From the NCBI GenBank assembly GCA_030653505.1, contig JAURZK010000185.1, positions 13,807 through 77,806 of the forward strand: a DNA stretch of 64,000 nt, written 5' to 3'. Below are positions 5,492 through 37,365 of this stretch, in pieces. The position numbers and the translations under genes are program-made. The stretch comes from Rubrivivax sp. (GTDB taxonomy: Bacteria; Pseudomonadota; Gammaproteobacteria; Burkholderiales; Burkholderiaceae_C). Position 1 is the first letter of the stretch, and every line of letters starts with the position of its first letter. The notes beneath the pieces are model-generated. The model did no database searches. It was not told where the DNA came from and saw nothing but the letters and a program-made list of their open reading frames with translations.

Positions 5492-6658
5492 CTAGCGCTT
5501 CTCAATGGCGTGCTTCAAGAAGGCACGGCCTTCCGCCAGCCTTCGGGCCGTACGCTGGATGGCCAGGCGCCGCACGACGGGTGCCGCACCTGCGCTGGCG
5601 TCGACGTCCGCCTCCACATAGATGACCCCCGATGGGTGGCCGAAGGCCAGCGTCCTCGTGACCTGGCCACGCGCCGCAGTGAGGATGCGGTGCGGCAAGC
5701 TGCCCGGGATCCGGCAGGCCAGGCCGGTGGTGGCGGTGAGCGTGCCCGCCAATGTCTTGCTGGCAGATCCCGAAGCGAACTGCCTCACCACCAGGTCGAT
5801 GCCCGCCGCCTCGATCAGCTCACCCTGGGTGCAACTGCGGTAGGCGGCGGGTGCGCTCAGCACGATCAACATGGGTGTCGACGGCGCCATGCGTGAATCC
5901 CAGTACGCGCGCAGGCCGCAGCGGTAGGCCACGGCCTGTCGGATGGCGTCCATGCGGCGCTTCAGGTCTTCACTGGCGTCGATCTCTTCCGGCGACTCGA
6001 TGCCGCTCATCCCCAGCGCGGTGTGGTGCACGTAGATCGCCATGTTGGCGCCATCGACAATCGACATCTCCACCGCGCCAACGCCGGGTACGTCCAGTAC
6101 CTCAGCCGCTTGGCCCGTGGGCAGCAAGGTGCCGGTGATCGCACCCACCGCCTGCGAGAAATCGAGCGAGATGGCCGCGCCGGTGCCGGGTACGCCGCCA
6201 ATGGCGAGGCTGCCGCGCCATTGCGGCTGGCCGTCCCGCACCGGCACCTCGACGCGGATCACGCGGTCGGTGTTGACGTTGTGCACCCGCACGACCGTGG
6301 TGCCGTCCACCGGTGCCACCAGGCCTTCCTGGATGGCATAGACACCCACGGCCGCCGTCAGGTTGCCGCAGTTCAGCTTGTAGTCCACCTCGCCGCGCAC
6401 CGTGCCGACCTGGCCGAACAGGTAGGTCACGTCGGTGCCCTCGCGCACCGGCGGGCCGATGATGGCGGCCTTGCTGGTGAGCTTGTCGGCGCCGCCCAGG
6501 CCATCGATCTGCCTCCGGTCGGGGCTGCCGAAGAGGTCGAGCAGGACGAGGCTGAGTTGCTCGCGGTCCGTGGGCACGTCCTGGGCGCGCAGGAAGATGC
6601 CCTTGCTGGTGCCCCCCCGCATCAGCACGAACGGCAGGTCGTCGCGCAGGATGCTCAT
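5492..6658 (-). CDS. PrpF/FldA-family isomerase (aconitate/methylaconitate/oxalomesaconate isomerase-like)
   Basis: N-terminal MRGGTSKG motif, RQIDGLGGA..LTSK and NCGNL motifs. Confidence 0.9.
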   Translation of the reverse strand: MSILRDDLPFVLMRGGTSKGIFLRAQDVPTDREQLSLVLLDLFGSPDRRQIDGLGGADKLTSKAAIIGPPVREGTDVTYLFGQVGTVRGEVDYKLNCGNLTAAVGVYAIQEGLVAPVDGTTVVRVHNVNTDRVIRVEVPVRDGQPQWRGSLAIGGVPGTGAAISLDFSQAVGAITGTLLPTGQAAEVLDVPGVGAVEMSIVDGANMAIYVHHTALGMSGIESPEEIDASEDLKRRMDAIRQAVAYRCGLRAYWDSRMAPSTPMLIVLSAPAAYRSCTQGELIEAAGIDLVVRQFASGSASKTLAGTLTATTGLACRIPGSLPHRILTAARGQVTRTLAFGHPSGVIYVEADVDASAGAAPVVRRLAIQRTARRLAEGRAFLKHAIEKR

Positions 6659-7078
6659 TCAGCCTGCGCGCTGGAAACGCGGGATGCTGATCTCGGGCGT
6701 GACGGGGTCGAACACCACCTGCACCACGTCGCCCACTTTCACGTCGGAAGGCGCGATGCCCACCACGTTGCTGATCATGCGCGGCCCCTCGTCCAACTGG
6801 ATCAGCGACACGTTGTAGGGCACGTCGCCGGTGAAGGTTGCGTTGTAGATCTGGTGGAACACGATGCTGGAATGCACGGTGCCGCGTCCCGAGATGGTCT
6901 TCCACTCGAAGCGGTCCGACAAGCAGTGCGGGCACACGTGGTTGATGGGGTAGCGCGGTTCGCCGCAGTCACCGCAGTGCTGCAGCGCCAGCTGCTGCTG
7001 TCGCGCGGCCGTCCAGAAGGGTCTGTTGGCGTCGTCCAGCGTGGGTAGGGGCTTGTCGTAGGGCTTGCTGTCGCTCAT
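6659..7078 (-). CDS. DUF35 Zn-ribbon/OB-fold protein
   Basis: FW.A.....L..QHCGDCG...YP...CPHC, then OB-fold V.L.EGPRM.SN(V). Start is ATG 7078 (MSDSKP). Confidence 0.9.
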   Translation of the reverse strand: MSDSKPYDKPLPTLDDANRPFWTAARQQQLALQHCGDCGEPRYPINHVCPHCLSDRFEWKTISGRGTVHSSIVFHQIYNATFTGDVPYNVSLIQLDEGPRMISNVVGIAPSDVKVGDVVQVVFDPVTPEISIPRFQRAG

Positions 7079-7092
7079 CTCGGTCTTCCCTT

Positions 7093-8241
7093 TCAGGCTG
7101 CGCGCAGGATCATCGCGTTGGCACAGTTCAGCGTCATGCCGCGGCCGGACACCAGGCAAGTCCGGGCGTCCGGCACCTGGCGCTCGCCGCAGGTGCCGCG
7201 CATCTGCCGCACACCTTCCACGGCATGCAGCCAGCCTTCCATGTACGACTCGGAGAGGTTGCCGCCGGCGGTGTTCACCGGCAGCTGCCCGCCCAGCTCG
7301 ATGCGGCCGTCTTCGGTGAAAGGCCCGCCTTCGCCCAGGCCGCAAAAGCCCGCGTGCTCCAGCCACAGGATCACGCTCATCGTGAAGTTGTCGTAGAGCT
7401 GCGCCACGTCGATGTCCTTGGGGCCCAGGCCGGCCATGCGGTAGGCGCGGTCCAGCGCGTCCTTCTGGTGGGGCACGTACCACCAGTTCTCGCGCTCCAT
7501 GTTCTGCGTGGTGTAGGCCTGGCCCATGCCGGAGATCAGCACCGGCGTCTGCTTCAGGTCCCGGGCGCGTTCGGCCGACGTCACGATCAGGCACACACCG
7601 CCGTCGCTGATCAGGCAGCAGTCGAGGAGGTGGAACGGTTCGACCACCATGCGCGAAGCCTGGTGCTCTTCGATGGTGAAGCGCTCGCGCATCACGGCGC
7701 TGGGATTCATCGAGGCGTGCTTTCGGCAGGCCACCGCCACGTTGCCGAGGTGCCGGCTGGTGGTGCCGTACAGGGCCATGTGGCGGCTGGCGGCCATGGC
7801 GCTGTTGGCCGCTGCACCGAACATGCCCCAGATGCCCCAGGAATCGCCCCAGCCCGAGGCACGGCCGAAGCGGTAGTTGCCGGTTCGCGCCGTGTCCGCG
7901 AAGACGCAAGCCACGTAGTCAGCCATGCCGCACTCGATGGCCATGGCGGCGTTCTGGATGAGCGCCCCGCAGGTGCCCCCGCCCATGGTCATGCTGCCGG
8001 TGTACTTCGGATCGATGCCCAGGGTCTCGCCCATGCGCAGGTAGTTCAGCGAGCCCTCGGGCGAGGTAGTGCCCGGCATGGTCAGCAAGCCATCGATCTG
8101 GTCCTTGCGCAGCCCTGCATCGTCCAGGGCGCGCTTGAACGCCTCGGTGGCCAAGGTCACCGGCGTCGAGCCCGGCAGCTTGCCTTGCGCCGTGGCGCCC
8201 ACGCCCACGATCGCGATCTTGTCCTTCAGGGATGTGCTCAT
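7093..8241 (-). CDS. SCP2-type thiolase-superfamily protein (Ltp2-like aldolase candidate)
   Basis: IAIVGVG start, AQLYDNFT, VNTAGGNLSESY..G..HAVEGVRQMRG. The canonical nucleophile Cys region reads MGGGT. Start is ATG 8241. Confidence 0.88.
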   Translation of the reverse strand: MSTSLKDKIAIVGVGATAQGKLPGSTPVTLATEAFKRALDDAGLRKDQIDGLLTMPGTTSPEGSLNYLRMGETLGIDPKYTGSMTMGGGTCGALIQNAAMAIECGMADYVACVFADTARTGNYRFGRASGWGDSWGIWGMFGAAANSAMAASRHMALYGTTSRHLGNVAVACRKHASMNPSAVMRERFTIEEHQASRMVVEPFHLLDCCLISDGGVCLIVTSAERARDLKQTPVLISGMGQAYTTQNMERENWWYVPHQKDALDRAYRMAGLGPKDIDVAQLYDNFTMSVILWLEHAGFCGLGEGGPFTEDGRIELGGQLPVNTAGGNLSESYMEGWLHAVEGVRQMRGTCGERQVPDARTCLVSGRGMTLNCANAMILRAA

Positions 8242-8261
8242 CTTTTGTCCTCGGGTCCTCG

Positions 8262-9038
8262 TCAGCGGCCGCGGTAGACCGGCGGCCGCTTTTCCTGGAA
8301 GGCGCGGCGGCCCTCGATGCGGTCTTCGGTGTCGCGCAACATGCCGAAGACATAACTCTCCATCGCCAGCGCCTGTGGCAGCGGCAGCGATGCGCCGTCG
8401 CGCACCAGTCGCTTGACCGCGCGCACCGACAGCGGCGCGTTCTGGGCAATGCGTCGCGCGATGGCGAGTACCGTCTCCAGCAGCTGCGCCTGCGGCACCA
8501 CCTGGCTGACCAGTCCGGTGCGCAGGGCTTCCTGCGCATCCACCCGGTCGCCCGTCAGCAGCATCAGCATCGCGTCGGAGCGCCCGATCACACGCGGCAG
8601 GGTCTGCGTGCCGCCGGCTCCCGGGATGCTGCCGATGCGCACCTCCGACAGCGCAAACTGCGCGTTCTCGGAAGCGATGCGCACGTCGCAGGCCAGCGCC
8701 AGCTCCATGCCGCCACCCATGGCGAAGCCATTGATGGCGCAGAGGATGGGCTTGTCCATCTCCATGCCGGCCAGCAGGTGGATGGACTGCGCCTGGCCAA
8801 AGCTGAGCTGGGCCGGGCTCTCCTTGGGCGGCATGGTCTTCTTGAGGTCCGACCCCGTGCAGAAGGCCTTGTCGCCCGCGCCGGTGAGCACGGTGCAGCG
8901 CACGGCATCGTCGCGCGCCACGCGCTGCCAGGCTTCGTGCAGTTCGAGGCGCGTCTCCGGGTCGATCGCGTTCATCGCCTCGGGCCGGTTCAAGGTGATG
9001 ATCGCGACGTGTTCGCGGACTTCGTACAGCAGCGGCAT
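8262..9038 (-). CDS. Enoyl-CoA hydratase/isomerase (crotonase)
   Basis: ITLNRPEAMNA, AFCTGSDL, AINGFAMGGGMELALACD, SEVRIGSIPGAGG. Confidence 0.93.
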   Translation of the reverse strand: MPLLYEVREHVAIITLNRPEAMNAIDPETRLELHEAWQRVARDDAVRCTVLTGAGDKAFCTGSDLKKTMPPKESPAQLSFGQAQSIHLLAGMEMDKPILCAINGFAMGGGMELALACDVRIASENAQFALSEVRIGSIPGAGGTQTLPRVIGRSDAMLMLLTGDRVDAQEALRTGLVSQVVPQAQLLETVLAIARRIAQNAPLSVRAVKRLVRDGASLPLPQALAMESYVFGMLRDTEDRIEGRRAFQEKRPPVYRGR

Positions 9039-9047
9039 GTGTGTCTC

Positions 9048-10412
9048 CTAGGTCTGGGATGTCGCCGCGGCGGCCAGCCACTGGCGCGCCGATGTCCGGT
9101 CCAGGGCCAACGCGCCAGAGACGAGCCGGTCCACATCGGCCCGCGCCTGGCCCCAGGCCAGGCAGTCCTGCAACTTGCTGCGCAGTTCGGCAAGGGTCAG
9201 CGGCGCCTCTGCCGAGCCGCGCAGCTGATCGACGCGGCGCTGCAAGGTCTGGCCGTCGCGCAAGGTCAGCGTGATGTCGGCCCAGCGAGGGAACGCCGGA
9301 CCATCGCCGCTGTCGTCGGTGCTGACCTGCACGAAGAAGGTCTGCGCTTCGGGGCGCTGCACGGCGGCATCGGTGAAGCTGGACAGCCGCACGTCGCCAT
9401 CCAACAGCGCCGCGGCCACGGCGTACTGCATCGAGAACTTCGCTTCGAGGCCGGTCTGGGGCCGTGTGTGGATCAGCGGCGTCAGTGCGCCTGCGCTGGT
9501 ACGCACGTGCACCGTCTGCACGTCAGCCAGCGCGAGGCCCTGTTCGGCACGCAGGTCGAGCACCCCATCCAGCGTGCGGTGTGTGGCGTAACACAACGGG
9601 TACTTCTTGACCTCGATGCCGCTGCTGATCAGCTCCAACGGGCCCTGCCCCAGCGTGGCCAATTGCGCCTGCAGCGACTCGCCATGGCCATACAGGTCCA
9701 CATAACCGAAGGCGTCGTCCAGCACACCCGGCGCGGCATCGAAGCCTTCGGCCGCGAGCAGTGCTGCACGCAGACCGGCGGCATTGCTGTGGCCGGCCTG
9801 GAAGGACTTGGCGTGGGTGCCGAAGTTGGCCCGCGTACCTGCGGCCTGCGCCACCGCCAGCCCGATGGCGTGGGTGGTGCGCGCAACGTCCAGGCGCAGC
9901 AAGCGGGCGCAGGCCACCGCCGCCGCGAGGGTGCCGATGCTGGCCGTGGAGTGCCAGCCGCGTGCATAGTGCTTCAGCGCCATGGCCTTGGACAGCTTGC
10001 AGATCACCTCGAAGCCCACGACATAGGCGCATACCAGCTCGGCGCCATCGGTATCGCTCGCTTCCGCCAGCCCCAGCAGCGCCGGCAGCAGCGCAATGCT
10101 CGGATGGCCGCGCAGCGGCGAGGTCACGTCGTCGAAGTCCAGCACATGCCCGGCCACGCCGTTGCACAGCGCGGCCAGCTCCAGCGGCAGTCGCTCGCCG
10201 CTGCCCCAATGGCTGGCGGCCCGCCCTGGCGCGGGCAATGCGCTGGCGCGGGCGTATTGCAGTGCCAGTTGCGAGGCCGGCTCGTGACACCCGGCGATGG
10301 CGCAGGCATAGGTGTCTACGAGCGCGCGCCCGGTGGCGTGAAGCAGATCGGCCGTCAGCTGCCGGGTCTGGAAGCCGCAGGCGAAGTGGGCGATACGTTC
10401 GGCTGCCTTCAT
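9048..10412 (-). CDS. MmgE/PrpD family protein
   Basis: NGVAGHVLDFDD, GHPS, RGWHST, K.FQAG, K.YPLCYATH motifs. Confidence 0.92.
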   Translation of the reverse strand: MKAAERIAHFACGFQTRQLTADLLHATGRALVDTYACAIAGCHEPASQLALQYARASALPAPGRAASHWGSGERLPLELAALCNGVAGHVLDFDDVTSPLRGHPSIALLPALLGLAEASDTDGAELVCAYVVGFEVICKLSKAMALKHYARGWHSTASIGTLAAAVACARLLRLDVARTTHAIGLAVAQAAGTRANFGTHAKSFQAGHSNAAGLRAALLAAEGFDAAPGVLDDAFGYVDLYGHGESLQAQLATLGQGPLELISSGIEVKKYPLCYATHRTLDGVLDLRAEQGLALADVQTVHVRTSAGALTPLIHTRPQTGLEAKFSMQYAVAAALLDGDVRLSSFTDAAVQRPEAQTFFVQVSTDDSGDGPAFPRWADITLTLRDGQTLQRRVDQLRGSAEAPLTLAELRSKLQDCLAWGQARADVDRLVSGALALDRTSARQWLAAAATSQT

Positions 10413-11629
10413 TGCAGCACCCCCTGCGCCCGGAGCGCGTCGATCTCGCCCGGTGTCAGCGCCAGAAGCTCGCGCAGCACCTCATCGGTGTGCTGGCCCA
10501 GCAGCGGCGCGGGCCTGTTCGGCAACCCCGGCGTGCGCGACAGGCGGGCGGGCAGGGCGTTGTAGACCGTGCGGCCCATCTCCGGATGGTCCAGATACAC
10601 CCAATGGCCGCGTGCCTGCAACTGAGAATCGCGGAGCAGTACGTCCGCCGCGTCCTGCACCGGGCCCGCGGACACGCCCAGCGCCTGCAGTCGTTGCGCC
10701 AGCTGCCCTGCGTCATGCAGGGCCGTGCAGCGGGCCAGGGCGGCGTCCAGAGCCTCGCAGTGCTGCCAGCGCGCCGTGGCGCTGGCGAAGCGTGTGTCCT
10801 GCGCCAACTCGGGCGCTTCCAGCACCTGCAGCAGCGCTTGCCAGGCGGCGTCGCCGGGCGCCGAGAGGGCGATCCAGCGGTCGTGTCCTTGTGTCGGGTA
10901 CACGCCGTGCGGCGCGCCTGCGAGATGCCGGTTGCCCACCCGCTCGGCCACTCGGCCGTTGGCGGTGTAGTCCAGCACGGCCGGGCCCAGCAGCGAGATG
11001 GTGGGCTCGATCTGCGCCACGTCTATGAACTGCCCCTCCCCGGTACGGCGACGGTGCCGCAGGGCGGCCAGCACGGCAAAGGCCGCGTGGGTGGGGTTGG
11101 GCACGTGGTCGGGGAAGTTCGTGCCCGTGCCTGCGGGCTGCTGGTCGGGCAGGCCACACAGGTGGTGCAGGCCGGTGACCGCACCCATGGTCAGTCCGTA
11201 GCCCAGGTAGTTGGCCTCCGGGCCGGTCTGGCCGTGCATCGACATCGAGACATAGACGATGTCCGGCTTCATTTCGCGCACGGCCTCGTAGCCCAGGCCG
11301 AACTTCTCCATCGTGCCCGGGGTGAAGTTGTTCGCCACCACGTCGCTCCGAGCAACGAGCTGGCGCGCCAGCCTCTGGCCGGCTGCGGTCTTGAGGTTCA
11401 GCGTGACACTGCGCTTGCTGGAGTTGCGATCGGCGAAGTAGCCGCTGCGGTTGACGCCGCGCACACCGTCCTTGAACGGCTTGGCGTCGCGCAAGGTGTC
11501 CAGACGTTCCGCACTTTCAACCTTGATCACGTCGGCCCCGAAGTCGCCCAGGATCTTGGTCGTGTAGGAGCCGGCGCCTATCCAGGTGAAGTCGGCCACG
11601 CGGATGCCGGCCAGCGGAAAGGGCTTCAT
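10409..11629 (-). CDS. CaiB/BaiF family III CoA-transferase subunit (lacks the usual active-site Asp)
   Basis: PLAGIRVADFTW..AG....ILGDFGADVIKVE, NSSKRSVTLNLK, NFTPGTMEKFGLGY; start is ATG 11629 with ATGA overlaps on both sides. Confidence 0.9.
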   Translation of the reverse strand: MKPFPLAGIRVADFTWIGAGSYTTKILGDFGADVIKVESAERLDTLRDAKPFKDGVRGVNRSGYFADRNSSKRSVTLNLKTAAGQRLARQLVARSDVVANNFTPGTMEKFGLGYEAVREMKPDIVYVSMSMHGQTGPEANYLGYGLTMGAVTGLHHLCGLPDQQPAGTGTNFPDHVPNPTHAAFAVLAALRHRRRTGEGQFIDVAQIEPTISLLGPAVLDYTANGRVAERVGNRHLAGAPHGVYPTQGHDRWIALSAPGDAAWQALLQVLEAPELAQDTRFASATARWQHCEALDAALARCTALHDAGQLAQRLQALGVSAGPVQDAADVLLRDSQLQARGHWVYLDHPEMGRTVYNALPARLSRTPGLPNRPAPLLGQHTDEVLRELLALTPGEIDALRAQGVLQ

Positions 11630-12876
11630 GCGATCACGCCCTGGCGCAGGAGCACGGCCTGGACATCGGCGTCGTAACCCAGGGCGGCCAGCACTTCGGC
11701 GCTGTGCTCCCCCAGCCGCGGCGCGGGGCGACCCAGGCGCCACGGCGAGGCGGACAGGCGGTAAGGCGCGCCTGGCACGGTGAGCGTACGCCCGCTGTAG
11801 GGGTGAGGCGTCTGCTCGAAGTAGCCACGGTGGGCCAGTTGGCGGTTGTGCATCAGGTCGGCGGTGGTGCTCACTGGACAGATCGGGATGCGGCGCCGCT
11901 GGCCTTCGGCATACAGCTCGGCCTTGGGGTGTGCGGCCGCATAGGGCTCGAACACCTGCGCGAAGAGATCCTTGGCTTCGGCCGTTGCCAGGAAGCCGGC
12001 GTCGTGCCACCGCGGCTCGCGCAACTGGGCGGCCCCGGGGGCTTGCACGTCCGCCATCCATTGGGCCGTCACGTCCCAGAACTTGTTCGAAGCGATGCCG
12101 CCAGCCATGAGGTACACCATGCCGTCGCTGCACGGAAACACGCCGGTGCCGGCCTGGCGTTGCTGACCCGCATTGCGCTGGCGCACGGTGTTCTCCAGTT
12201 CGACGAACTGCACGGCGTTCTCCAGCGCCATGGCCACACTTTCCTGCACAGACACGTCCACGTGCTGGCCTTGGTGCTCGCCGGCTTGTCCTTCGACGTC
12301 CCATAGCGCCACCATCGCGGCCACGGCCGCGAACTGCGCGGCGGCCAGCAGCGCCTGGTTGCCATAAGGGGCGGTCGGCGCCAGGCCGGGGTAGCCGCCC
12401 AGCGACAGCAGGCCGCCGTAGGCCAGCGCCACCAGGTCGCCGCCTTCGTACTGCGCATACGGGCCGTCTTGCCCGAAGGTCGTGATGCTGGTGGTCACGA
12501 TGCCGGGCTGCAGGTGGGCCAAGGCGGCGTGATCCAGGCCGCGCGCTTGCATCCGGCCGGGCCGTTCGCACTCGATCACCAGGTCCGCGTGTTGAACCAG
12601 CGCGCGAAAGATCTCTTGCCCCTGCGCTTCGTCCAGATCCAATGCCACGCCGCGCTTGCCCTGGTTGAAATAGGCAAAGCCAAGGCTGTGTTCGGGGTGG
12701 ACGTGGTCGTCGAGAAAGGGACCCTCGCGCCGGCCCGCACAGCCCGTGGGTGGCTCGACCAGCAGCACATCGGCACCGAGTTGCGCGAACAGCTTGCCGC
12801 AGTACTGCTCGCTGCCCTGAGCGAGATCGAGTACCCGGATACCCGAGAGCGGGCCTGAAGCGGATGGCGATGTCAT
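11626..12876 (-). CDS. CaiB/BaiF family III CoA-transferase subunit
   Basis: PLSGIRVLDL...CGKLFAQLGADV..VEPP, NQGKRGVALDL, FGQDGPYAQYEGGDL; start is ATG 12876. Confidence 0.9.
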   Translation of the reverse strand: MTSPSASGPLSGIRVLDLAQGSEQYCGKLFAQLGADVLLVEPPTGCAGRREGPFLDDHVHPEHSLGFAYFNQGKRGVALDLDEAQGQEIFRALVQHADLVIECERPGRMQARGLDHAALAHLQPGIVTTSITTFGQDGPYAQYEGGDLVALAYGGLLSLGGYPGLAPTAPYGNQALLAAAQFAAVAAMVALWDVEGQAGEHQGQHVDVSVQESVAMALENAVQFVELENTVRQRNAGQQRQAGTGVFPCSDGMVYLMAGGIASNKFWDVTAQWMADVQAPGAAQLREPRWHDAGFLATAEAKDLFAQVFEPYAAAHPKAELYAEGQRRRIPICPVSTTADLMHNRQLAHRGYFEQTPHPYSGRTLTVPGAPYRLSASPWRLGRPAPRLGEHSAEVLAALGYDADVQAVLLRQGVIA

Positions 12877-14093: not shown

Positions 14094-14107
14094 CCCACGC
14101 CGGCCCC

Positions 14108-30288: not shown

Positions 30289-30293
30289 GGTGC

Positions 30294-31055
30294 TCAGCGG
30301 CCCTTCCATTGCGGTTTGCGCTTCTCGCGGAAGGCTAGCGGGCCTTCCTGCGCATCGGCACTGCGGTAGACCCTGTCGAAGAGGTGCGTGGCGGCCTGCA
30401 GCGCGGCCGAGGTGCCCATCTCGTTGGACAGGTAGACGAGCTCGCGTGCAGCGCGCACCGTCAGCGGCGCATTGGCAGCGATCTTTCCGGCCAGCTCGAA
30501 ACACTTCGGCAGCAGGTCGGCCGCGGGCACGACGTGGTTGACGAAGCCGATCTCGTGCGCGCGCTGCGCGCCGATGGGCTCGCCCGTCAGCAGCAGTTCC
30601 ATCATCGCCCGCTGCTTCACCATGTGCGCCAGCGGCACGGCCCAGGGCATCCCTCGGCCGACACGCGCCTCGGTGATGCCGAAGCTGGCGTGATCGGCGG
30701 CCACGCACAGGTCGCACATCTGCGCAAACATCCAGCCGCCGGCGTAGGCCACGCCGTTGACGGCGGCGATGGTCGGCTTGCTCAAGTGCAGGCTCTGGCC
30801 GATGACGGGCAGAAAACCCGGCGGCAGCACACCCAGGCCGGTGGCCGCGGCTTCCTTCAGGTCCATGCCGGCGCAGAAGGCCTTTTCGCCCGCGCCGGTG
30901 AGGATGGCCACCAGCGCCGTGTCGTCGGCCTCGTAGCGCGCGAAGGCCTCGTAGAGACCCGCGCGCACGTCGGCGTTGATGGCGTTGTGGGCCGACGGGC
31001 GGTCGATGGTGATCAGCACCACCGCGCCGCGCTGTTCGTAGAGCACGTCCTTCAT
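30294..31055 (-). CDS. Enoyl-CoA hydratase/isomerase
   Basis: ITIDRP.AHNAI, AFCAGMDL, AAVNGVAYAGG, FGITEARVG; start is ATG 31055. Confidence 0.92.
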   Translation of the reverse strand: MKDVLYEQRGAVVLITIDRPSAHNAINADVRAGLYEAFARYEADDTALVAILTGAGEKAFCAGMDLKEAAATGLGVLPPGFLPVIGQSLHLSKPTIAAVNGVAYAGGWMFAQMCDLCVAADHASFGITEARVGRGMPWAVPLAHMVKQRAMMELLLTGEPIGAQRAHEIGFVNHVVPAADLLPKCFELAGKIAANAPLTVRAARELVYLSNEMGTSAALQAATHLFDRVYRSADAQEGPLAFREKRKPQWKGR

Positions 31056-31507
31056 GCCACCACCTTCTTCTTCATCATCGCCGTGCGACGGCAGACCGCC
31101 ACCACCTCGTCGCGCTGGTTCAGGCCGGTGTGCTCGAACTCCACCAGCCCGACATCGGGGCGCGAGTTGCTGGGCCGCATGGAGACCACGGTGGTGTGCA
31201 CGTGCAGCGTGTCGCCGTGGAACACCGGCTTCGGAAAGCGCACGTCGCTCATGCCCAGGTTGGCCACCGTGGTGCCCAGCGTGGTGTCGTTGACCGACAT
31301 GCCGACCACCAGCCCCAGCGTGTACAGGCTGTTGAAGAGGCGCTGGCCCCATTCGGTGCCGGCGGCGAAGTGGGCGTCGATGTGCAGCGGCTGCGGGTTC
31401 ATGGTCAGCAGGCTGAACATGGTGTTGTCCATCTCGGTCACGGTGCGCGACCAGGGGTGGATGAAGGCCTGTCCGACCGAGAACTCTTCGTAGTGCAGAC
31501 CTGCCAT
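31052..31507 (-). CDS. MaoC family (R)-specific enoyl-CoA hydratase/dehydratase
   Basis: YEEF.VGQ.F.H...RTVTE.DN..F..LTMNPQPLH.D, F.KPVFHGDT. Confidence 0.92.
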   Translation of the reverse strand: MAGLHYEEFSVGQAFIHPWSRTVTEMDNTMFSLLTMNPQPLHIDAHFAAGTEWGQRLFNSLYTLGLVVGMSVNDTTLGTTVANLGMSDVRFPKPVFHGDTLHVHTTVVSMRPSNSRPDVGLVEFEHTGLNQRDEVVAVCRRTAMMKKKVVA

Positions 31508-31516
31508 CGTGGTGTC

Positions 31517-32680
31517 CTAGGGTTGACGCACGGCAGCGGCGTGCAGCGGTCCGGCCGGCACGCCCCAGGCCTGGGCCCAGGCCAACGCCGAGGCACCTGC
31601 GGGCTGGGGCGGCTGCGGGATGTCTGGCGGCGTGGCGCTGAAGCGCGGCGCGGGTGCGGGCTGGGTGATGCCGTCGATGTCGACGAAGGCGCCGCGTGAG
31701 GCGTGATGGGCGTGCCGTGACGCCTCCAGCGGCGCCAGCACCGGCGCGAAGCAGGCGTCGCTGCCTTCGAGCAGTGCGCACCACTGCGCCCGGGTGCGGG
31801 TGGCGAAGATCGCGGCCAGCTGCTGGCGGGCCCGGGGCCACTGCGTCGGGTCGTCCATCTCGGGCAGGTCCTGCGCCTCGGCGCCCAGGCGTTCGAGCAG
31901 CACACGCCGGAACTTGGTCTCGATCGGCGCCACCGAGACGTACTCGCCGTCGGCGCAGCGGTAGACGTCGTAGAAGGGCGCGCCCGAGTCCAGCGTGTTG
32001 GTGCCCCGCGGGCCGTTCTGCAGGCCGGCGGCGAGCAGGCCGTAGAAGGGGGTCATCAAGGCGGCGACGCCCTCGGTCATCGCCGCATCCACAACCTGCC
32101 CGCACCCCGTCTGGCGTGCGCTGAGCAATGCGCTGACGACGCCGAAAGCCAGCATCAGCGAGCCGCCCGCGTAGTCGCCCAGCAGGTTCAGCGGCGGCGT
32201 GGGTGCGGCACCTTCGCGACCGATGGCGTGCAGTGCGCCCGACAGCGCGATGTAGTTCAGGTCGTGCCCGGCGGTCTGCGCCAGCGGGCCGGTCTGCCCG
32301 TAGCCGGTGACACGGCCGTAGACCAGCCGCGGGTTGCGCGCCAGGCAGGCTTCGGGGCCCAGGCCCAGGCGCTCCAGCGTGCCGGGGCGGAAACCTTCGA
32401 GCAGCACGTCGGCGTGTTCGGCCAGGGCCAGGGCCAGCGTCAGGCCCGCGGCCGTCTTCAGGTCGACCTTGAGCTGGCGCTTGCCACGCTGCAGCAGGTC
32501 GAAACGTGCCGGCCGCGGGATGCCCAGACCGCTGGGCTCGACGCGGTCCAGCCGCAGCACCTGCGCACCCAGGTCGGCCAGCAGCATGCCGCACATCGGC
32601 CCCGGGCCGATGCCGGCGATCTCGAGCACCTTCACACCGGCCAGGGGGCCGGCGGTGGGCAGTGTGGACGAGGTGCTCAT
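31517..32680 (-). CDS. CaiB/BaiF family, alpha-methylacyl-CoA racemase-like
   Basis: GIGPGP...MLLADLGA, EGFRPG..ERLGLGP, AGHDLNYIALSG and LGDYAGG (AMACR-type His/Asp motifs). Confidence 0.88.
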   Translation of the reverse strand: MSTSSTLPTAGPLAGVKVLEIAGIGPGPMCGMLLADLGAQVLRLDRVEPSGLGIPRPARFDLLQRGKRQLKVDLKTAAGLTLALALAEHADVLLEGFRPGTLERLGLGPEACLARNPRLVYGRVTGYGQTGPLAQTAGHDLNYIALSGALHAIGREGAAPTPPLNLLGDYAGGSLMLAFGVVSALLSARQTGCGQVVDAAMTEGVAALMTPFYGLLAAGLQNGPRGTNTLDSGAPFYDVYRCADGEYVSVAPIETKFRRVLLERLGAEAQDLPEMDDPTQWPRARQQLAAIFATRTRAQWCALLEGSDACFAPVLAPLEASRHAHHASRGAFVDIDGITQPAPAPRFSATPPDIPQPPQPAGASALAWAQAWGVPAGPLHAAAVRQP

Positions 32681-32701
32681 GGGCGCGGCTGTGCAGCAGG
32701 C

Positions 32702-33868
32702 TCAATACGACTTGGGCAGGCCCAGCACCTTCTCGGCGATGTAGCACAGCACCAGTTGCGGGCTGATGGGCGCGATGCGCGGGATCAGCACCTCGCGCAG
32801 GTAACGCTCGACGTGGTATTCCTTGGCGTAGCCGAAGCCGCCGTGCGTCATCACCGCCTGTTGGCAGGCGTTGTAGCCGGCCTCGCCGGCCAGGTACTTC
32901 GCAGCGTTGGCCGCGGCGCCGCAGGGCAGGCCGCTGTCGTACTGCCAGGCGGCCTGCATCACCATCAGGTTGGCGGCTTCCAGCTCCATCCAGTTGGTGG
33001 CAAGCGGATGCTGGATGGCCTGGTTCTGGCCGATGGGACGGTTGAAGACCACACGCTCCTTCGCGTAGGCCACGGCACGGTTCAGCGCCAGGTGGCCCAG
33101 GCCCACCGCCTCGGCGGCGATGAGCACGCGCTCGGGGTTCATGCCGTGCAGGATGTATTCGAAGCCGCGACCCTCTTCGCCGATGAGGTCGTCGACCGGG
33201 ATATCGAAGTCCTCGAAGAAGAGCTCGTTCGAGTCGATGCACTTGCGCCCCATCTTCTCGATCTCGTGCACCGTCACGCGCTTGCGGTCGAAGTCGGTGT
33301 AGAAGAGGCTCAGGCCGTGTGTGGGCTTGCTCACCTCTTCCAGCGGCGTGGTGCGCGCCAGCAGCAGGATCTTGCTGGCCACCTGTGCGGTGCTGATCCA
33401 CACCTTCTGCCCGTTGACGACGTAGCGGTCGCCCCGGCGCTCTGCGCGCAGCTTGAGCTGCGTGGTGTTCAGCCCCGTGTTGGGCTCGGTGACGCCGAAG
33501 CAGCTCTTGACCTCACCACGCGCCACCGGCGGCAGCATGCGCTGGCGCTGCGCCTCGTTGCCGAACACCGCCACCGGGTTCAGCCCGAAGAGGTTGATGT
33601 GCACCGCCGATGCCGCCGACATGCCGCCACCCGACTCGGCGATGGTGCGCATCATGATCGCCGCCTCGGTGATGCCCAGGCCGGCGCCGCCATGGGCCTC
33701 GTCCATGCACATGCCCAGCCAGCCGTCGTCGGCCAGCGCGCGGTAGAAGGCCTCGGGGAAGACACCGTCGTGGTCGCGGTCGAACCAGTAGGCGTCGTCG
33801 AAACGCTGGCAGATCTTCGCGATCGTGTCGCGGATGCGTTCCTGGTCTTCGGTGAGGGCGAAGTTCAC
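32702..33868 (-). CDS. Acyl-CoA dehydrogenase
   Basis: FGVTEPNTG, NGQKVWIST, R.VF.RPIGQNQAIQH, HGGFGYAKEY; GTG start at 33868. Confidence 0.93.
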   Translation of the reverse strand: MNFALTEDQERIRDTIAKICQRFDDAYWFDRDHDGVFPEAFYRALADDGWLGMCMDEAHGGAGLGITEAAIMMRTIAESGGGMSAASAVHINLFGLNPVAVFGNEAQRQRMLPPVARGEVKSCFGVTEPNTGLNTTQLKLRAERRGDRYVVNGQKVWISTAQVASKILLLARTTPLEEVSKPTHGLSLFYTDFDRKRVTVHEIEKMGRKCIDSNELFFEDFDIPVDDLIGEEGRGFEYILHGMNPERVLIAAEAVGLGHLALNRAVAYAKERVVFNRPIGQNQAIQHPLATNWMELEAANLMVMQAAWQYDSGLPCGAAANAAKYLAGEAGYNACQQAVMTHGGFGYAKEYHVERYLREVLIPRIAPISPQLVLCYIAEKVLGLPKSY

Positions 33869-35079
33869 TTCGATTCCTGTTCTGGCGGTGTCAGCACGAC
33901 GCCCTGCGCGATCAGTTGTTCGATCTCGTCTGTGCCGTAACCCGCCTGCCGCAGCACCTCGACACCGTGTTCGCCGTGGCGCGGCGCCGGGCGCACCGGG
34001 TCGGGTGTGCTCTCCGACCAACTCATCGGCATGCGCATGGTGCGGATGGCGCCTTCGCTGGGGTGCTGCTCGATGGCGAAGAAGCCGGTGGCGACGAGGT
34101 GCGGGTCCTGCAGCACGCTCTTCAGATCGTGCATCGGCAGCATGGGAATGTCGGCCTGCTCCAGCAGCGCCATCCATTCGGCGGTGCGGCGCTGCTCGAA
34201 GATGCGCGCGAGTTCACCGTAGACGTGATCGATGGCCTGGGAACGCGCGGCGAAGTTCGCGAAGCGCGGGTCGTCGCGCAGCAGCGCTTCGCGGCCGACG
34301 GCGCGCAGGAAGCTTTCCCACTGCTTGTCGTTGTAGACCAGCGCGCAGATGTAGCCGTCACTGGTGCGGTAGGGTCGCCGCTCGGGCGAGAGCTGGCGCG
34401 CGTAACCCCCCTCGTCCAGCGGCGGCTCGAAGCTCAGGCCGCCCAGGTGGTCGCCCAGCACGAAGGCGACCATGGTCTCGAACATCGGCACGTCCACACG
34501 CTGGCCGCGGCCGGTGCGGTGGCGCGCCAGCAGCGCGGCCAGGATGCCGCCCACGGCCGTCACGCCGACGATGCGGTCGGCGATCGCCGCCGGCACGTAA
34601 CGCGGTGGCCCGCCGCTGGCGCGCGCGATCAGGTAGGACAGCGTCGCACCGCCCTGGATCAGGTCGTCGTAGGCCGGGCGCGCGGCGTAGGGGCCGTCCT
34701 GGCTGAAGCCGAAGAGCCCGGCGTAGACCAGGCGCGGGTTGAGCGCGGCCACGGTGTCGTAGTCCAGCCCCAGCCGTGCCATCGCGTTCGGACGCACGTT
34801 GTAGACCAGCACGTCGGCATCGGCCAGCAGGCGCTGCAGCACCTTCAGGCCGACGGGCTTCTTCAGGTCCAGCGCCACGCTGCGCTTGTTGCGGTTGGTG
34901 TTGAGGAAGATCGGGCCCATGTCGGCATGGCGGGCCGGGCCGATCTGGCGCACCAGGTCACCGTCGGGCGACTCGACCTTGACGACGTCGGCGCCCATGT
35001 CGCCCAGCGCCTGCGAGGCAAACGGGCCCATCAGCACCGACGTCATGTCGATGACCTTGATGCCGTGCAATGGACCCAT
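33865..35079 (-). CDS. CaiB/BaiF family III CoA-transferase
   Basis: PL.GIKVIDM....MGP.A.Q.LGDMGADV.KVESP.GD, NRNKRS..LDLK, RPAYDDLIQ (active-site Asp). Confidence 0.93.
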   Translation of the reverse strand: MGPLHGIKVIDMTSVLMGPFASQALGDMGADVVKVESPDGDLVRQIGPARHADMGPIFLNTNRNKRSVALDLKKPVGLKVLQRLLADADVLVYNVRPNAMARLGLDYDTVAALNPRLVYAGLFGFSQDGPYAARPAYDDLIQGGATLSYLIARASGGPPRYVPAAIADRIVGVTAVGGILAALLARHRTGRGQRVDVPMFETMVAFVLGDHLGGLSFEPPLDEGGYARQLSPERRPYRTSDGYICALVYNDKQWESFLRAVGREALLRDDPRFANFAARSQAIDHVYGELARIFEQRRTAEWMALLEQADIPMLPMHDLKSVLQDPHLVATGFFAIEQHPSEGAIRTMRMPMSWSESTPDPVRPAPRHGEHGVEVLRQAGYGTDEIEQLIAQGVVLTPPEQESK

Positions 35080-35149
35080 GGGCTGGTGTGTGGCGCTGGT
35101 GGATGCAGGGGAAGGCGCGGCGGCAGCCTTGCCCGTCGCAGACCTTAAT

Positions 35150-35185
35150 GTTCACTTTGGTGAACACATTGTCCACCCATGGAAA
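35150..35185. promoter_or_regulatory. Palindromic operator-like site(s) in the divergent CoA-transferase/MFS promoter
   Basis: TGTTCAC-TTTG-GTGAACA palindrome (35149-35166), followed by GTCCACCCATGGAA (35171-35184). Confidence 0.55.
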
Positions 35186-35306
35186 CCCGTTGCCACCATC
35201 GAGCGGGGTCTCCGCACGCACTGGGAAAGTGTGCGCAGCAGAAACGGCTGGCGGGCATTGGGGCTGACCCGATAGCAATGCATTCACCACCAAGTACATT
35301 CGGTGC

Positions 35307-36563
35307 ATGCACAAGAACGAAGCCGAGGCGGCGCGCTGGCGGTCGGCGGCCGCACTGCCCGTGCTGGTGCTCGCGCTGTGCTTCGCCTTCAACTTCATCG
35401 GCCGCGGCGTCGGCGACACCTACATGGTGTTCCTGCTGCCGCTGGGCGCGGAATTCGGCTGGCACCGCTCGCAGATGACGAGCGTGTATTCGGCGCTGAT
35501 GGTGGTCAGCGGGCTGGCCTCGCCGCTGTCAGGCATCGTCTTCGAACGCTGGGGCCCGCGTGTGCTCTACGCCGGCGGCCTGGCACTGCTGGGCGCGGGT
35601 TATTACCTCGTCGGGCAGGCGCGTGCGCTGTGGCAGTTCTACCTGTGCATCGGCCTGCTCGGCGGGCTGGGCGCCTCGGCCATCGGCATGGTGCCGGCGG
35701 CCGCGCTCATCAGTCGCTGGTTCGACCGCCGCATGAGCACCGCCATCGGCCTGGCCTACGCCGGCTTCGGCTGCGGTGCGCTGCTGATGGTGCCGCTGGC
35801 GCAGACGCTGATCGACAGCCGCGGCTGGCGCGCCGCCTACCACCTCATCGGCGGCACGCTGCTGGTGCTGTTGCCGCTGTCGCTGGTGCTGCCCTGGCGT
35901 CGCATCCGTGCCGGCAGCGCGGCCTTGCCGCCGCCTATGGCCCGCAGTGGCGCCGGCATGCCTTTGCCCTTGCGCGCAGCGCTGGGTCAGCGCCGCTTCT
36001 GGCTGCTGGTGCAGGTGATGTTCTTCACCGCCGTCGGCATGTACCTCATCATCGTGCAGTCGGTGGCCTACCTGGTGGACATCGGCTTCACGCCGCTGCA
36101 GGCGGCCGGTGCCTTCGGCAGCGCGGGCATGCTCTCGGTGATCGGCGTGTCGGCCGCGGGCTGGCTGGCCGACCGTTACGGCCACAAGCGCGCGGCGACG
36201 GTCAGCTTCACCGGCACTTTCCTGGGCACGGTCGTGCTCTTCGGCATGTCCTTCCAGTCCACGCACTGGCTGCTGGGCGCCTACGTGCTGCTGTTCGGCC
36301 TGTGCCAGGGTGCACGCGGTCCTGTCATCGCCAGCCTCAGTGCGCGCCTCTTTCCCGGGCCCGGGCAGGCTGCCATCTACGGCGCCATCTACGCCTGCAT
36401 GTCGGTAGGCTCGGGGCTGGGCGCGCTGCTGTCGGGCGTGCTGCACGATATGAGTGGCGGCTACCGGGCCTCTTTTGTGCTTTCGATGGTCTGCGTGCTC
36501 GCCGCGGCAGCGCCGTTCTGGACGTCCCGCATCCTCATCCCTGCAGAGAGGCCCAAGCCGTGA
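35307..36563 (+). CDS. MFS transporter
   Basis: About 12 hydrophobic segments; G..FERWGPR and GWLADRYGHKR MFS loop motifs. Confidence 0.92.
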   Translation: MHKNEAEAARWRSAAALPVLVLALCFAFNFIGRGVGDTYMVFLLPLGAEFGWHRSQMTSVYSALMVVSGLASPLSGIVFERWGPRVLYAGGLALLGAGYYLVGQARALWQFYLCIGLLGGLGASAIGMVPAAALISRWFDRRMSTAIGLAYAGFGCGALLMVPLAQTLIDSRGWRAAYHLIGGTLLVLLPLSLVLPWRRIRAGSAALPPPMARSGAGMPLPLRAALGQRRFWLLVQVMFFTAVGMYLIIVQSVAYLVDIGFTPLQAAGAFGSAGMLSVIGVSAAGWLADRYGHKRAATVSFTGTFLGTVVLFGMSFQSTHWLLGAYVLLFGLCQGARGPVIASLSARLFPGPGQAAIYGAIYACMSVGSGLGALLSGVLHDMSGGYRASFVLSMVCVLAAAAPFWTSRILIPAERPKP

Positions 36564-36603
36564 ACCTGCCTGCCCCTTCCACCCTCAGTCTTTGTCTGCA
36601 CCC

Positions 36604-37365
36604 GTGAACGTCAAGCAAGTCGCCAACGTGCTCGAGCTCATCGAGTTTTTCGCCCAGCACCGCCGCCCGGCCACGCTGGCCGAGGTGGCCAAGCACTTCG
36701 ACTGGCCGCGCTCGAGCACCTTCAACCTGCTGGGCACGCTGGCCAGCCGCGGCTACCTCTACGAGCCGCGCGCGCGCGGCGGCTACTACCCGTCGCCGAA
36801 GTGGCTGTCGCTGCTGCAGCAGATCGAACGCGCCGAACCCATCCCCGAACAGTTCCGCGCCCTCCTGACTGCGCTTGCTGAGCGCACCGGCGAGACCGCC
36901 GTGCTCGCGGCCACCAGCGGCGCCTGCGCGGTCTTCGTCGACGCCGTCGAGTCGTCCCACGCCATCCGCTACACCGCCAGCCCGGGCAAACTGGTGCCGC
37001 TGCACGTCACGGCCACCGGGCGCGCGCTGCTGTCGCTGCTGAGCCCGGCCGACCGCGCCAGCGTGCTGCGGCGTGCCACCTTCGAGCGCTACACGCCCAC
37101 CACGTTGATGAGCGTGGCGGCGGTGGAAAAGGAGATCCAGCGCTCGTTGCAGCGCGGCTGGTTCGAGGGCGCCGCTGAGTTCACGACCGACCTCGGCGGC
37201 GTGGCGCTGCCTTTGCACGTGCCGCACCGCCACTTTGCGCTGCTGGTGGCGGGGCCAATGTTCCGCATCCAGACCCGCAGCAGCGAACTGGCTCGCCTGA
37301 TGACCGAGGAGATCGAGACCCACCTCGGCAAGGAAACGACGCCGCCCGGAAAGCCGCAGACCTGA
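36604..37365 (+). CDS. IclR family transcriptional regulator
   Basis: VKQVANVLELIE HTH, PRSSTFNLL.TL..RGYL, TGETAVL, TATGRALL; GTG start at 36604. Confidence 0.92.
   Translation: MNVKQVANVLELIEFFAQHRRPATLAEVAKHFDWPRSSTFNLLGTLASRGYLYEPRARGGYYPSPKWLSLLQQIERAEPIPEQFRALLTALAERTGETAVLAATSGACAVFVDAVESSHAIRYTASPGKLVPLHVTATGRALLSLLSPADRASVLRRATFERYTPTTLMSVAAVEKEIQRSLQRGWFEGAAEFTTDLGGVALPLHVPHRHFALLVAGPMFRIQTRSSELARLMTEEIETHLGKETTPPGKPQT

Follow-up and report, generated by a model that had tools for sequence, protein, structure and literature searches.

Two adjacent and probably separable CoA-transferase-dependent catabolic modules in a groundwater Rubrivivax genome

Layout and gene content of the region

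The DNA analyzed here is a stretch of 64,000 nucleotides (the window) from Rubrivivax sp. (contig JAURZK010000185.1 of assembly GCA_030653505.1), in which positions 5492–37365 carry a dense set of genes for the metabolism of coenzyme A (CoA) esters, divided below into Module 1 (5492–19070) and Module 2 (19596–37365). Genes were called by third-position G+C (the window has a G+C content of ~68%), start-codon context, and Pfam domain limits, and those for Module 1 matched a separate gene call on a Logan contig from the same sample. The 30 genes of the region are arranged in five compact transcription units with many ATGA/GTGA overlaps, and the gene map leaves no space for additional genes. Unit A (minus strand) encodes two family III CoA-transferase proteins (A1 and A2), an MmgE/PrpD protein, a crotonase, a thiolase-like protein, a DUF35 protein, and a PrpF-family protein. 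Unit B runs on the plus strand through a Bug protein, an iron-containing alcohol dehydrogenase (Fe-ADH) homologue, a second Bug protein, and a DUF2889 protein, followed by the regulator IclR1 (minus) and an acyl-CoA dehydrogenase (ACAD; plus). Unit C (plus) encodes a NUDIX-like protein, an NMO-like protein, a CitE-family protein, and a family I type CoA-transferase; unit D (minus) encodes the family III protein D1, an ACAD, the family III protein D2, a MaoC hydratase, a crotonase, DctQMP, the large and small subunits of another ACAD, and a further crotonase; and unit E (plus) encodes an MFS transporter and the regulator IclR2.

By Pfam, four genes have the family III CoA-transferase fold (A1, 11626–12876; A2, 10409–11629; D1, 33865–35079; D2, 31517–32680). 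There are four ACAD genes (17883–19070, 32702–33868, and the large/small pair 26171–27322 and 25116–26174) and three crotonase genes (ECH_A, 8262–9038; ECH_D1, 30294–31055; ECH_D2, 24328–25119), whose products cluster together. Uptake and regulation are represented by two TctC/Bug proteins, DctPQM, one MFS transporter, and two IclR regulators. An earlier reading made from the sequence alone (the sequence-only reading) had named these gene families with their counts, all of which we recovered with Pfam, refined starts, and the separate gene call; its list had passed over the genes for the Fe-ADH homologue (14108–15331), the DUF2889 protein (16357–16947), the NUDIX-like protein (19703–21010), and the NMO/FabK-like protein (21007–22119). 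The five CoA-transferase-family genes that it counted are present, but the likely transferase enzymes number three, as A1 lacks the catalytic Asp and D2 resembles a racemase.

A six-frame search for AMP-binding ligases (PF00501) returned 29 across the genome, all of them outside the region and the nearest ~10.6 kb away from it, and Pfam scans found no SDR, 3HCDH, or dioxygenase domain among the 30 genes. The earlier statement that the region has no AMP-forming acyl-CoA ligase, 3-hydroxyacyl-CoA dehydrogenase, or ring dioxygenase therefore holds, and the same searches support its view that acids are activated by CoA-transferases rather than ligases. Classical fatty-acid β-oxidation does not describe the region, which contains no AMP-forming ligase, 3-hydroxyacyl-CoA dehydrogenase, or Cys-thiolase. 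When the proteins were compared with NCBIfam, no catabolic enzyme of the region reached an equivalog cut-off; DctP passed the generic TRAP_S1 subfamily model and one crotonase passed another generic model.

The transferase and aldolase of Module 1

The A1 gene (11626–12876, minus strand; PF02515) has an alternative start at 12960, which would give a protein of 444 residues, and shares an ATGA overlap with the next gene. We aligned A1 against the Asp of A2, D1, D2, and a subunit of benzylsuccinate CoA-transferase (9fn0_B) and found a gap at the catalytic Asp column in all 45 orthologues. A2 (10409–11629, minus strand) matches 9fn0_B with 356 bits (2e-105), the next structure reaching 199 bits, and retains the Asp in 53 of 55 orthologues. 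This conserved Asp, mapped here by alignment, is the catalytic residue of family III CoA-transferases. Since A1 has a gap where A2 has the Asp, the A1/A2 enzyme looks like a heteromer with a single catalytic subunit type, with A1 as the putative non-catalytic partner. The two genes are adjacent and translationally coupled, an arrangement consistent with a heteromeric family III transferase of the BbsE+BbsF type.

The thiolase-like protein (7093–8241, minus strand) has the SCP-x thiolase fold and is closest to 4u4e, a structural-genomics "thiolase" from Sphaerobacter, and to TcLtp2 (6ok1_A; 3.3e-68 over residues 7–369). It matches CtSal (9myr) at 8.8e-46 and BbsB at 2.5e-32, and it scores 111 bits on the NCBIfam BbsB model, for which the cut-off is 750. 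Where true thiolases have the nucleophilic Cys, this protein has Gly88, and the position is Gly in 61 of 61 homologues. Tyr283, which lies in a YDNF motif, and Tyr333 align with Tyr294 and Tyr344 of TcLtp2, which serve as the catalytic base (within a YDHF motif) and the catalytic acid, respectively (PMC12329534). Among the 61 homologues, the YDNF motif is kept in 60–61 (the base Tyr in all of them) and the acid Tyr in 60. The loss of the nucleophilic Cys and the presence of the Tyr pair, with Asn in place of the His, point to an Ltp2-type retro-aldolase active site. Along with the CitE-type lyase of Module 2, this active site supports the earlier proposal that carbon chains are cleaved by lyase or retro-aldol steps with no classical dehydrogenase/thiolase step. 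The putative partner of the aldolase is a free-standing DUF35 protein with Zn-ribbon and OB domains (6659–7078, minus strand; PF12172 and PF01796; 139 residues in the separate gene call), whose gene adjoins the thiolase-like gene in 48 related loci.

Other genes, distribution, and putative operator of Module 1

The remaining enzymes of unit A are a hydratase and two isomerase-like proteins. ECH_A, a crotonase-type enoyl-CoA hydratase in the position of BbsH (8262–9038, minus strand; PF00378, 4.8e-73), belongs to a cluster represented in 58 related loci, and an ECH_A-like gene stands directly upstream of the aldolase gene in most of the loci listed. The sequence-only reading had labeled the other two PrpD and PrpF. 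The MmgE/PrpD protein (9048–10412, minus strand) is nearest to iminodisuccinate (IDS) epimerase (best PDB match, 1e-67) rather than to PrpD. Its residues H89, D92, H103, Y149, H154, K202, and K270, mapped by a constant offset rather than from a printed alignment, have the spacing of H85, D88, H99, Y145, H150, K198, and K266 of IDS epimerase. The protein has the residues of a two-base epimerase: the carboxylate-binding His/Asp/His/Lys/Lys, the catalytic His, and the second-base Tyr that is typical of epimerases in the published IDS-epimerase residue list (PMC12290011). All known substrates of MmgE/PrpD enzymes have a C2/C3-substituted succinate backbone in common (PMC12290011). The PrpF-family isomerase (5492–6658, minus strand; PF04303, 1.4e-98) finds its best PDB match in 3-methylitaconate delta-isomerase (3g7k, 2e-84) and stays under the NCBIfam cut-offs for both GalD and PrpF.

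Unit B begins with two TctC/Bug periplasmic binding proteins (13110–14093; PF03401, 1.1e-85; and 15363–16343; PF03401, 7.2e-66; both plus strand), whose solved relatives bind varied carboxylates and so do not discriminate between substrates. Between them lies the divergent Fe-ADH-family oxidoreductase (14108–15331, plus strand; PF00465, 1.6e-24), for which no PDB relatives were found at 1e-10; it is kept with Module 1 in seven loci (L007 and L009–L014) and is missing from most loci outside Burkholderiales. The DUF2889 protein (16357–16947, plus strand; PF11136, 2e-39) has the invariant residues C86, C119, H121, and C165 and may bind a metal; its AlphaFold2 model (pLDDT 73) gave no PDB fold match at E ≤ 0.001 and showed only a weak IscU-like resemblance. 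IclR1 (16887–17765, minus strand; PF09339 and PF01614) is kept with the module. The last gene, in the position of BbsG, encodes an ACAD with four ACAD domains (ACAD_C; 17883–19070, plus strand). We assign it to Module 1 because its orthologue (75–81% identity) directly follows the DUF35 gene in Bordetella petrii and Bradyrhizobiaceae loci and because a 92%-identical copy lies beside IclR1 in genome G183.

Tracing Module 1 through the thiolase-like protein gave a set of 80 fetched loci, which belong to Beta- and Alphaproteobacteria, Actinobacteria, and Chloroflexi and have aldolases 61–95% identical. The transferase pair, crotonase, thiolase-like protein, and DUF35 protein form the core common to these loci, and several of them have the ACAD gene within the operon. 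The complete set of the Burkholderiales version (Bug, Fe-ADH, Bug, DUF2889, IclR, and PrpF) occurs in loci of Ramlibacter, Polaromonas, Variovorax, and Diaphorobacter, among others. Module 1 is rare: an orthologue of the aldolase was found in none of 150 other sampled genomes of the family (~150 genera) and in none of 18 congeners.

Among the 80 loci, genes near the module encode an aldehyde dehydrogenase in 19, a D-2-hydroxyacid dehydrogenase in 13, and an equivalog of the tricarballylate dehydrogenase TcuA in 7 (446 bits against a cut-off of 369). TcuA lies beside or within the Module 1 core in L015, L044, L045, L049, L058, L073, and L084, which come from Alphaproteobacteria, Actinobacteria, and one betaproteobacterial metagenome-assembled genome (MAG), and in one case it is inside the operon. 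The idea that TcuA and the ACAD are mutually exclusive was dropped, as the overlap of 1 locus against 1.75 expected is not significant. In fourteen loci, which judged from the taxa named are mostly from Chloroflexi and Actinobacteria MAGs (L061, L063–L066, L068–L072, L074, and L077–L079), a minimal module is accompanied by an aldehyde dehydrogenase and a thiamine diphosphate (ThDP) enzyme resembling acetolactate synthase. Some loci of this type also have an RpiR regulator and a NitT/TauT-type ABC transporter, and their upstream context is unlike that of the Burkholderiales version. An assignment of the ThDP enzyme as a glyoxylate carboligase is not supported, at 268 bits against a cut-off of 791.

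A putative IclR1 operator, TATGTGGAC/GTCCACATA, is present in the divergent promoter regions as an inverted pair at 12953–12961 and 13028–13036, with a third copy at 17766–17774 upstream of IclR1 and the ACAD gene. Exact TATGTGGAC occurs four times in the window, with three of these copies in the two divergent intergenic regions of Module 1, against an estimated ~0.2 expected from base composition, and it is kept at equivalent places in five orthologous loci (L007 and L009–L012). It does not occur in the Module 2 promoters, where other motifs are kept among G000, G017, and G015. The confinement of TATGTGGAC to Module 1 promoters suggests that the IclR1 regulon is separate from the IclR2 regulon.

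Genes of Module 2

The conserved part of Module 2 consists of family III and family I CoA-transferases, an ACAD, a crotonase, and a CitE-type lyase. The family III transferase, CoAT-III D1 (33865–35079, minus strand; PF02515, 7.9e-110), is of the dicarboxylate type, retains the Asp, and has SUGCT as its best PDB match (5e-59). The family I type enzyme, of the AcetylCoA_hydro/transferase group (23022–24290, plus strand; PF13336 and PF02550), has matches of at least 48% identity (E ≤ 1e-90) in 9 of 150 other genomes of the family, the best at 58%. ACAD_D (32702–33868, minus strand) has four ACAD domains and generic PDB and NCBIfam matches, and the compact-core crotonase is ECH_D1 (30294–31055, minus strand; PF00378, 8.3e-55). 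The HpcH/CitE-family acyl-CoA lyase (22138–23025, plus strand; PF03328, 4.4e-42) reaches 174 bits on the citE model (cut-off 443) and 138.3 on the RipC/Ccl model (cut-off 375), being nearer to the former, and matches human CLYBL at 1.2e-32. A compact core of CitE, family I transferase, ECH_D1, and ACAD_D is contiguous in G051, and in G184 the same four genes and CoAT-III D1 lie beside a divergent IclR2; these compact cores indicate that units C and D are functionally tied.

Around this core are accessory genes. CoAT-III D2 (31517–32680, minus strand; PF02515) is the only family III paralogue of the region with AGHDLNYIALSG, which we take to be the motif of alpha-methylacyl-CoA racemase (AMACR), and on this basis D2 is probably a racemase. 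The accessory MaoC hydratase, a single-hotdog protein (31052–31507, minus strand; PF01575), scores 135.7 bits on the RipB/Ich model (cut-off 340). MaoC is missing in G017, both MaoC and D2 are missing in G015, and both are present in G183. The heteromeric ACAD has a small subunit with partial ACAD domains (25116–26174, minus strand; best NCBIfam model IpdE2, below cut-off) and a large subunit with ACAD N and M domains (26171–27322, minus strand; best NCBIfam model the PimC large subunit, below cut-off); together with its crotonase ECH_D2 (24328–25119, minus strand; PF00378, 1.6e-62), which passes only the generic NF006699 subfamily cut-off, it forms a sub-module that is also found in G016, G014, and L009.

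Unit C opens with the NUDIX-like protein of 435 residues (19703–21010, plus strand), in which PF00293 covers the N-terminal part only. Its protein family, of ~360 residues, occurs in 100 of 151 genomes of the bacterial family, with paralogues in the same genome at C97:59210–60280, C21:14586–15329, and C21:196132–197151. In several genomes, including this one (C97) and G001, the neighboring gene encodes a racemase-like family III protein that resembles CoAT-III D2; no NMO, CitE, or transferase gene was found among the neighbors of the NUDIX-like gene in other genera. The NMO/FabK-like flavin mononucleotide oxidoreductase (21007–22119, plus strand) matches PF03060 (2e-42) and scores 143 bits on the FabK model (cut-off 453). 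Transport is represented by the TRAP proteins DctP (27339–28367; PF03480), DctM (28430–29719; PF06808), and DctQ (29716–30288; PF04290), all on the minus strand, and by the MFS transporter (35307–36563, plus strand; PF07690). IclR2 (36592–37365, plus strand; PF09339 and PF01614) accompanies the module in G017, G015, G183, and G184.

Separability of the two modules

The junction between the modules (19071–19702, 632 bp) is non-coding: it has no coding signal and no Rfam family, none of which was found in window positions 1–40000, and homology to G017 begins at ~19596. A separately assembled 22.5-kb Logan contig covers 16000–21609 with no differences and at equal depth, so the junction is not an assembly artefact. 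DNA searches against 18 species of the same genus returned one long match only, 19596–37365, in G017 (88–90%) and G015 (~80%). In both genomes the gene order from the NUDIX-like gene to IclR2 is the same by tblastn, and nothing of 5492–19070 adjoins. The upstream flank in G017 matches contig C20 of the present genome, not C44, and C20 runs 2.5 kb past the homology; Module 2 therefore occupies different chromosomal sites in congeners. Its proteins are 70–96% identical in three other genomes.

The sequence-only reading had taken the 32 kb as one system and had named independent occurrence of the sub-operons as evidence against this; synteny shows that they do occur independently. Module 2 is found without Module 1 in G017, G015, and, as the core, G051, and Module 1 without Module 2 in at least seven of its nine other carriers (a family I transferase match of at least 58% exists in two of the nine). 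Some observations nevertheless weigh against two separable modules and favor a single pathway, in which Module 2 would process a carbonyl or acyl-CoA product of Module 1, or a single complex branched substrate would require both. Here the modules lie side by side across a confirmed junction; G183 has Module 1 and a complete Module 2, including MaoC and D2, on one contig; G184 has Module 1 and the Module 2 core; and in Polaromonas (L009), genes resembling ECH_D2, ACADl, ACADs, and CoAT3_D1 stand right behind Module 1. Co-occurrence is enriched, with 2 of 9 Module 1 carriers against 3 of 168 sampled relatives (Fisher p ~0.02, uncorrected for phylogeny and based on small numbers). In G183, however, the copies lie 39 kb apart, separated by unrelated genes and oriented differently relative to each other; a separate IclR belongs to each module, with TATGTGGAC confined to the promoters of one; and steps for uptake, activation, and cleavage are present in each. 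We therefore regard a single pathway as unlikely, and a functional link between the modules, as a thematic or ecological association, as possible.

Taken together, these results make it probable that two separable catabolic modules lie side by side here in a genome rich in paralogues, both predicted to activate their substrates by CoA transfer and to end in a C–C lyase step instead of a dehydrogenase plus thiolase. From the enzyme families, we infer that Module 1 (5492–19070) and Module 2 (19596–37365) act on branched di- or tricarboxylic acids as variants of known pathway types.

Proposed routes and alternative readings

The whole Module 1 route described here is inferred from homology, as are the substrates, reaction order, and regiochemistry of both modules. 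The most likely substrates of Module 1 appear to be 2-substituted succinates. Such an acid would be taken up by the TctC-type proteins, and the stereo- and double-bond isomers of the free acid would be adjusted by the IDS-epimerase-like MmgE/PrpD protein and the methylitaconate-isomerase-like PrpF protein. The BbsEF-like heteromeric transferase (A2 catalytic, A1 inert) would then form the CoA ester, the ACAD and crotonase would convert it to a 3-hydroxyacyl-CoA, and the Ltp2-type aldolase with DUF35 would split this into a carbonyl compound, on which the Fe-ADH homologue may act, and an acyl-CoA (succinyl-CoA or acetyl-CoA). The acyl-CoA released could re-prime the transferase, so that the route would not need ATP. 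If CoA is on the branch-side carboxyl, the products would be an aldehyde and succinyl-CoA, as in the bbs pathway; if it is on the distal carboxyl, they would be a 2-oxo acid and acetyl-CoA, as in the cleavage of citramalyl-CoA. In Module 2, the order would be CoA transfer, dehydrogenation, hydration, and CitE-type cleavage of a malyl-CoA-type ester, carried out by the core of family III and family I CoA-transferases, ACAD, crotonase, and CitE-type lyase; the heteromeric ACAD with its own crotonase and the MaoC, racemase-like, NMO-like, NUDIX-like, TRAP, and MFS proteins would be add-ons.

As a tentative and still doubtful proposal, Module 1 could encode an undescribed "aldolytic bbs-type" pathway by which aerobic bacteria degrade 2-substituted succinates independently of ATP. 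In it, an epimerase-fed, stereospecific BbsEF-like transferase and an Ltp2-like aldolase would yield an aldehyde or 2-oxo acid and the priming acyl-CoA, with Module 2 as a recurrent partner for related branched dicarboxylates. Candidate substrates would be alkyl- or alkylidene-succinates of the itaconate type, or acids of the aconitate/tricarballylate type. The epimerase argues for a chiral 2-substituted succinate, and the TcuA neighbors and TctC binders argue for aconitate- or tricarballylate-like acids. Tricarballylate, the substrate of TcuA, is achiral. It fits poorly with an epimerase, which speaks against the routes outlined above and leaves the substrate class a candidate only. Further points on the same side are that the scheme gives no explanation of the Fe-ADH, DUF2889, NMO-like, and NUDIX-like proteins; that the aldolase motif is YDNF and not YDHF; and that, with no protein above an equivalog cut-off, every function is a family-level assignment.

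Module 1 could instead be a conventional thiolytic β-oxidation of the bbs type, with the Fe-ADH homologue as the 3-hydroxyacyl-CoA dehydrogenase and the thiolase-like protein and DUF35 as a BbsAB-type thiolase. The gene-for-gene likeness to bbsEF, G, H, and AB, the detectable homology to BbsB (2.5e-32; 111 bits on its model), and the retention of the oxidoreductase in the Burkholderiales version are consistent with this reading. We consider it very unlikely, as the position of the nucleophilic Cys is Gly in 61 of 61 homologues and the Ltp2 Tyr pair is kept, no gene of the SDR or 3HCDH families is present, and most loci outside Burkholderiales lack the Fe-ADH gene and have an aldehyde dehydrogenase instead.

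The host genome raises another alternative. It is a 4.56-Mb MAG of an uncultured groundwater bacterium in 200 contigs, with at least 26 family III CoA-transferase, 47 ACAD, 36 crotonase, and 45 Bug loci (each a lower bound) and 10 SCP-x thiolase-like genes. On contig C21, a ~200-kb stretch (~5–197 kb) is dense in paralogues of the CoAT-III, ACAD, crotonase, Bug, MaoC, PrpD, thiolase-like/DUF35, and NUDIX-like genes and carries a second copy of the Module 1 core, with a 74%-identical aldolase at 88244–89380. The clustering at 5492–37365 is above a random scatter of genes, yet it is typical of this genome, whose dozens of paralogous modules of this type make such regions ordinary for the organism. 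The adjacency could accordingly be read as having no pathway meaning, with redundant, promiscuous paralogues having accumulated in a family-rich genome. Such a reading is highly improbable given the translationally coupled operons with ATGA overlaps, the gene order and active sites of Module 1 that are kept across phyla, its conserved operator, and the 70–96% identity of Module 2 proteins in three other genomes. Least probable of all is a role for Module 1 in cleaving the side chains of steroids, bile acids, or isoprenoids, as Ltp2 and Sal do: the matches to TcLtp2 (3.3e-68) and CtSal (8.8e-46), the DUF35 partner, and the steroid-type heteromeric ACAD nearby in Module 2 recall such systems, but the DUF35 protein is free-standing rather than fused to MaoC, the hydratase is a crotonase, the transferase is BbsF-like, the predicted uptake is by TctC-type carboxylate binders, MmgE/PrpD enzymes act on C4-dicarboxylate backbones (PMC12290011), and the window has no ring-degradation genes.

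The flanks of the region are unrelated to it: a LuxR regulator and a TIG lipoprotein lie to the left, and a lytic transglycosylase followed by housekeeping genes to the right. Scans for promoter and terminator consensus sequences gave fewer matches than shuffled sequences did and revealed no operon boundaries. Farther to the right, ARAGORN predicts a tRNA-Ala (CGC) at 40327–40402 (minus strand), overlapping the start of a predicted esterase ORF (40319–41344), so one of the two calls may be wrong. A protein of 461 residues with two CCG cysteine-rich domains (the Fe-S type of TcuB, GlcF, and LutA-like proteins) is encoded at 41956–43341, 4.6 kb downstream of the region.

Significance

The sequence-only reading had described the system as undescribed. 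This stands insofar as no equivalog match exists and a search of the accessible literature library found no paper on either module, related papers dealing only with steroid, bbs, or itaconate systems; it is qualified in that both halves are variants of known architectures, bbs/Ltp2 and itaconate/methylsuccinate. Module 1 is the more valuable lead of the two because its proposed mechanism is coherent and testable. To our knowledge, BbsEF-type transferases have been described only in anaerobic toluene degradation, and Ltp2/Sal aldolases only for steroid side chains; if the proposal is true, Module 1 would extend both into general aerobic organic-acid catabolism and would give a function to DUF2889 and to an aldolase family conserved at 61–95% identity in the fetched loci, which span at least four phyla. 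A self-priming CoA cycle that runs without ATP would be of interest for pathway design, and the two modules are relevant to the question of which branched di- and tricarboxylates (relatives of itaconate, methylsuccinate, aconitate, and tricarballylate) matter as substrates in soil and groundwater. For annotation, adjacent CoA-transferase/ACAD/crotonase operons in Burkholderiales should not be read as single pathways.

Comparison with known systems

We compared the two modules with four known systems. The likeness to the tricarballylate utilization system TcuABC of Salmonella lies in the TcuA equivalog that accompanies the Module 1 core in 7 of 80 loci and in the tricarboxylate-type TctC uptake binders. 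In contrast, the window contains no TcuA, TcuB, or TcuC, and the only TcuA-like gene, elsewhere in the genome, is 30% identical. Moreover, the Tcu route as it is known does not depend on CoA.

Module 2 resembles the itaconate/methylsuccinate pathway (Yersinia RipABC type) in its predicted order of steps, from transfer through dehydrogenation and hydration to the lyase, and in having homologues of its CoA-transferases (RipA-type family I and family III), ACAD, MaoC protein, and CitE-type lyase, and the MmgE/PrpD protein of Module 1 has, like Msi and IDS epimerase, the full set of two-base epimerase residues. The degradation cluster of this pathway is Ict-Ich-Ccl-Mcd-Msi (Gonner et al. 2025, PMC12290011), in which the Msi (MmgE/PrpD) gene always adjoins the methylsuccinyl-CoA dehydrogenase gene. 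Neither module has that arrangement: Module 2 has no MmgE/PrpD gene, and the one in Module 1 lies between transferase and crotonase genes with no ACAD gene adjoining. The MaoC protein of Module 2 falls short of the model for itaconyl-CoA hydratase, Ich/RipB (135.7 against 340), and is missing in G017 and G015, its CitE-family protein falls short of the model for (S)-citramalyl-CoA lyase, Ccl/RipC (138.3 against 375), its conserved hydratase is a crotonase, and it has a heteromeric ACAD and NMO-like, NUDIX-like, and TRAP genes in addition.

The aldolase and its partner in Module 1 resemble Ltp2-ChsH2 (6OK1) and Sal-Shy (9MYR) in the SCP-x thiolase fold, the loss of the nucleophilic Cys, the Tyr of a YD-x-F motif with a second Tyr, and the DUF35 partner. 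They differ in the YDNF form of the motif and in the DUF35 protein, which is a separate protein of 139 residues and not the C-terminus of a MaoC hydratase; nor does it come from a MaoC-type steroid hydratase (ChsH2/Shy) in a steroid context, as the window has no steroid genes. The hydratase of Module 1 is a crotonase, and activation would be by a transferase, not a ligase.

The fourth system is the bbs operon, which serves the β-oxidation of (R)-benzylsuccinate in anaerobic toluene degraders through BbsEF, BbsG, BbsH, BbsCD, and BbsAB. Module 1 differs from it in having no BbsCD-type (SDR) dehydrogenase, its sole candidate oxidoreductase being the divergent Fe-ADH homologue, and no Cys-thiolase like BbsB, with Gly at the position of the nucleophile and an Ltp2-type Tyr pair. 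It also has the additional MmgE/PrpD, PrpF, Fe-ADH, DUF2889, and TctC genes; no bss genes were seen in the window or the fetched loci; and its hosts, judged from the taxa named, appear to be mainly aerobic soil and water bacteria. An ACAD and a crotonase, the possible counterparts of BbsG and BbsH, are both conserved in the module, with matches at the family level only. Common to both systems are an ACAD, a crotonase, a family III CoA-transferase made of two subunits, and a thiolase-fold protein paired with a Zn-ribbon/OB (DUF35) protein, together with a substituted-succinate logic in which the acyl-CoA released could re-prime the transferase. Module 1 would be an aldolytic relative of the bbs operon, with retro-aldol cleavage in place of the dehydrogenase and thiolase.

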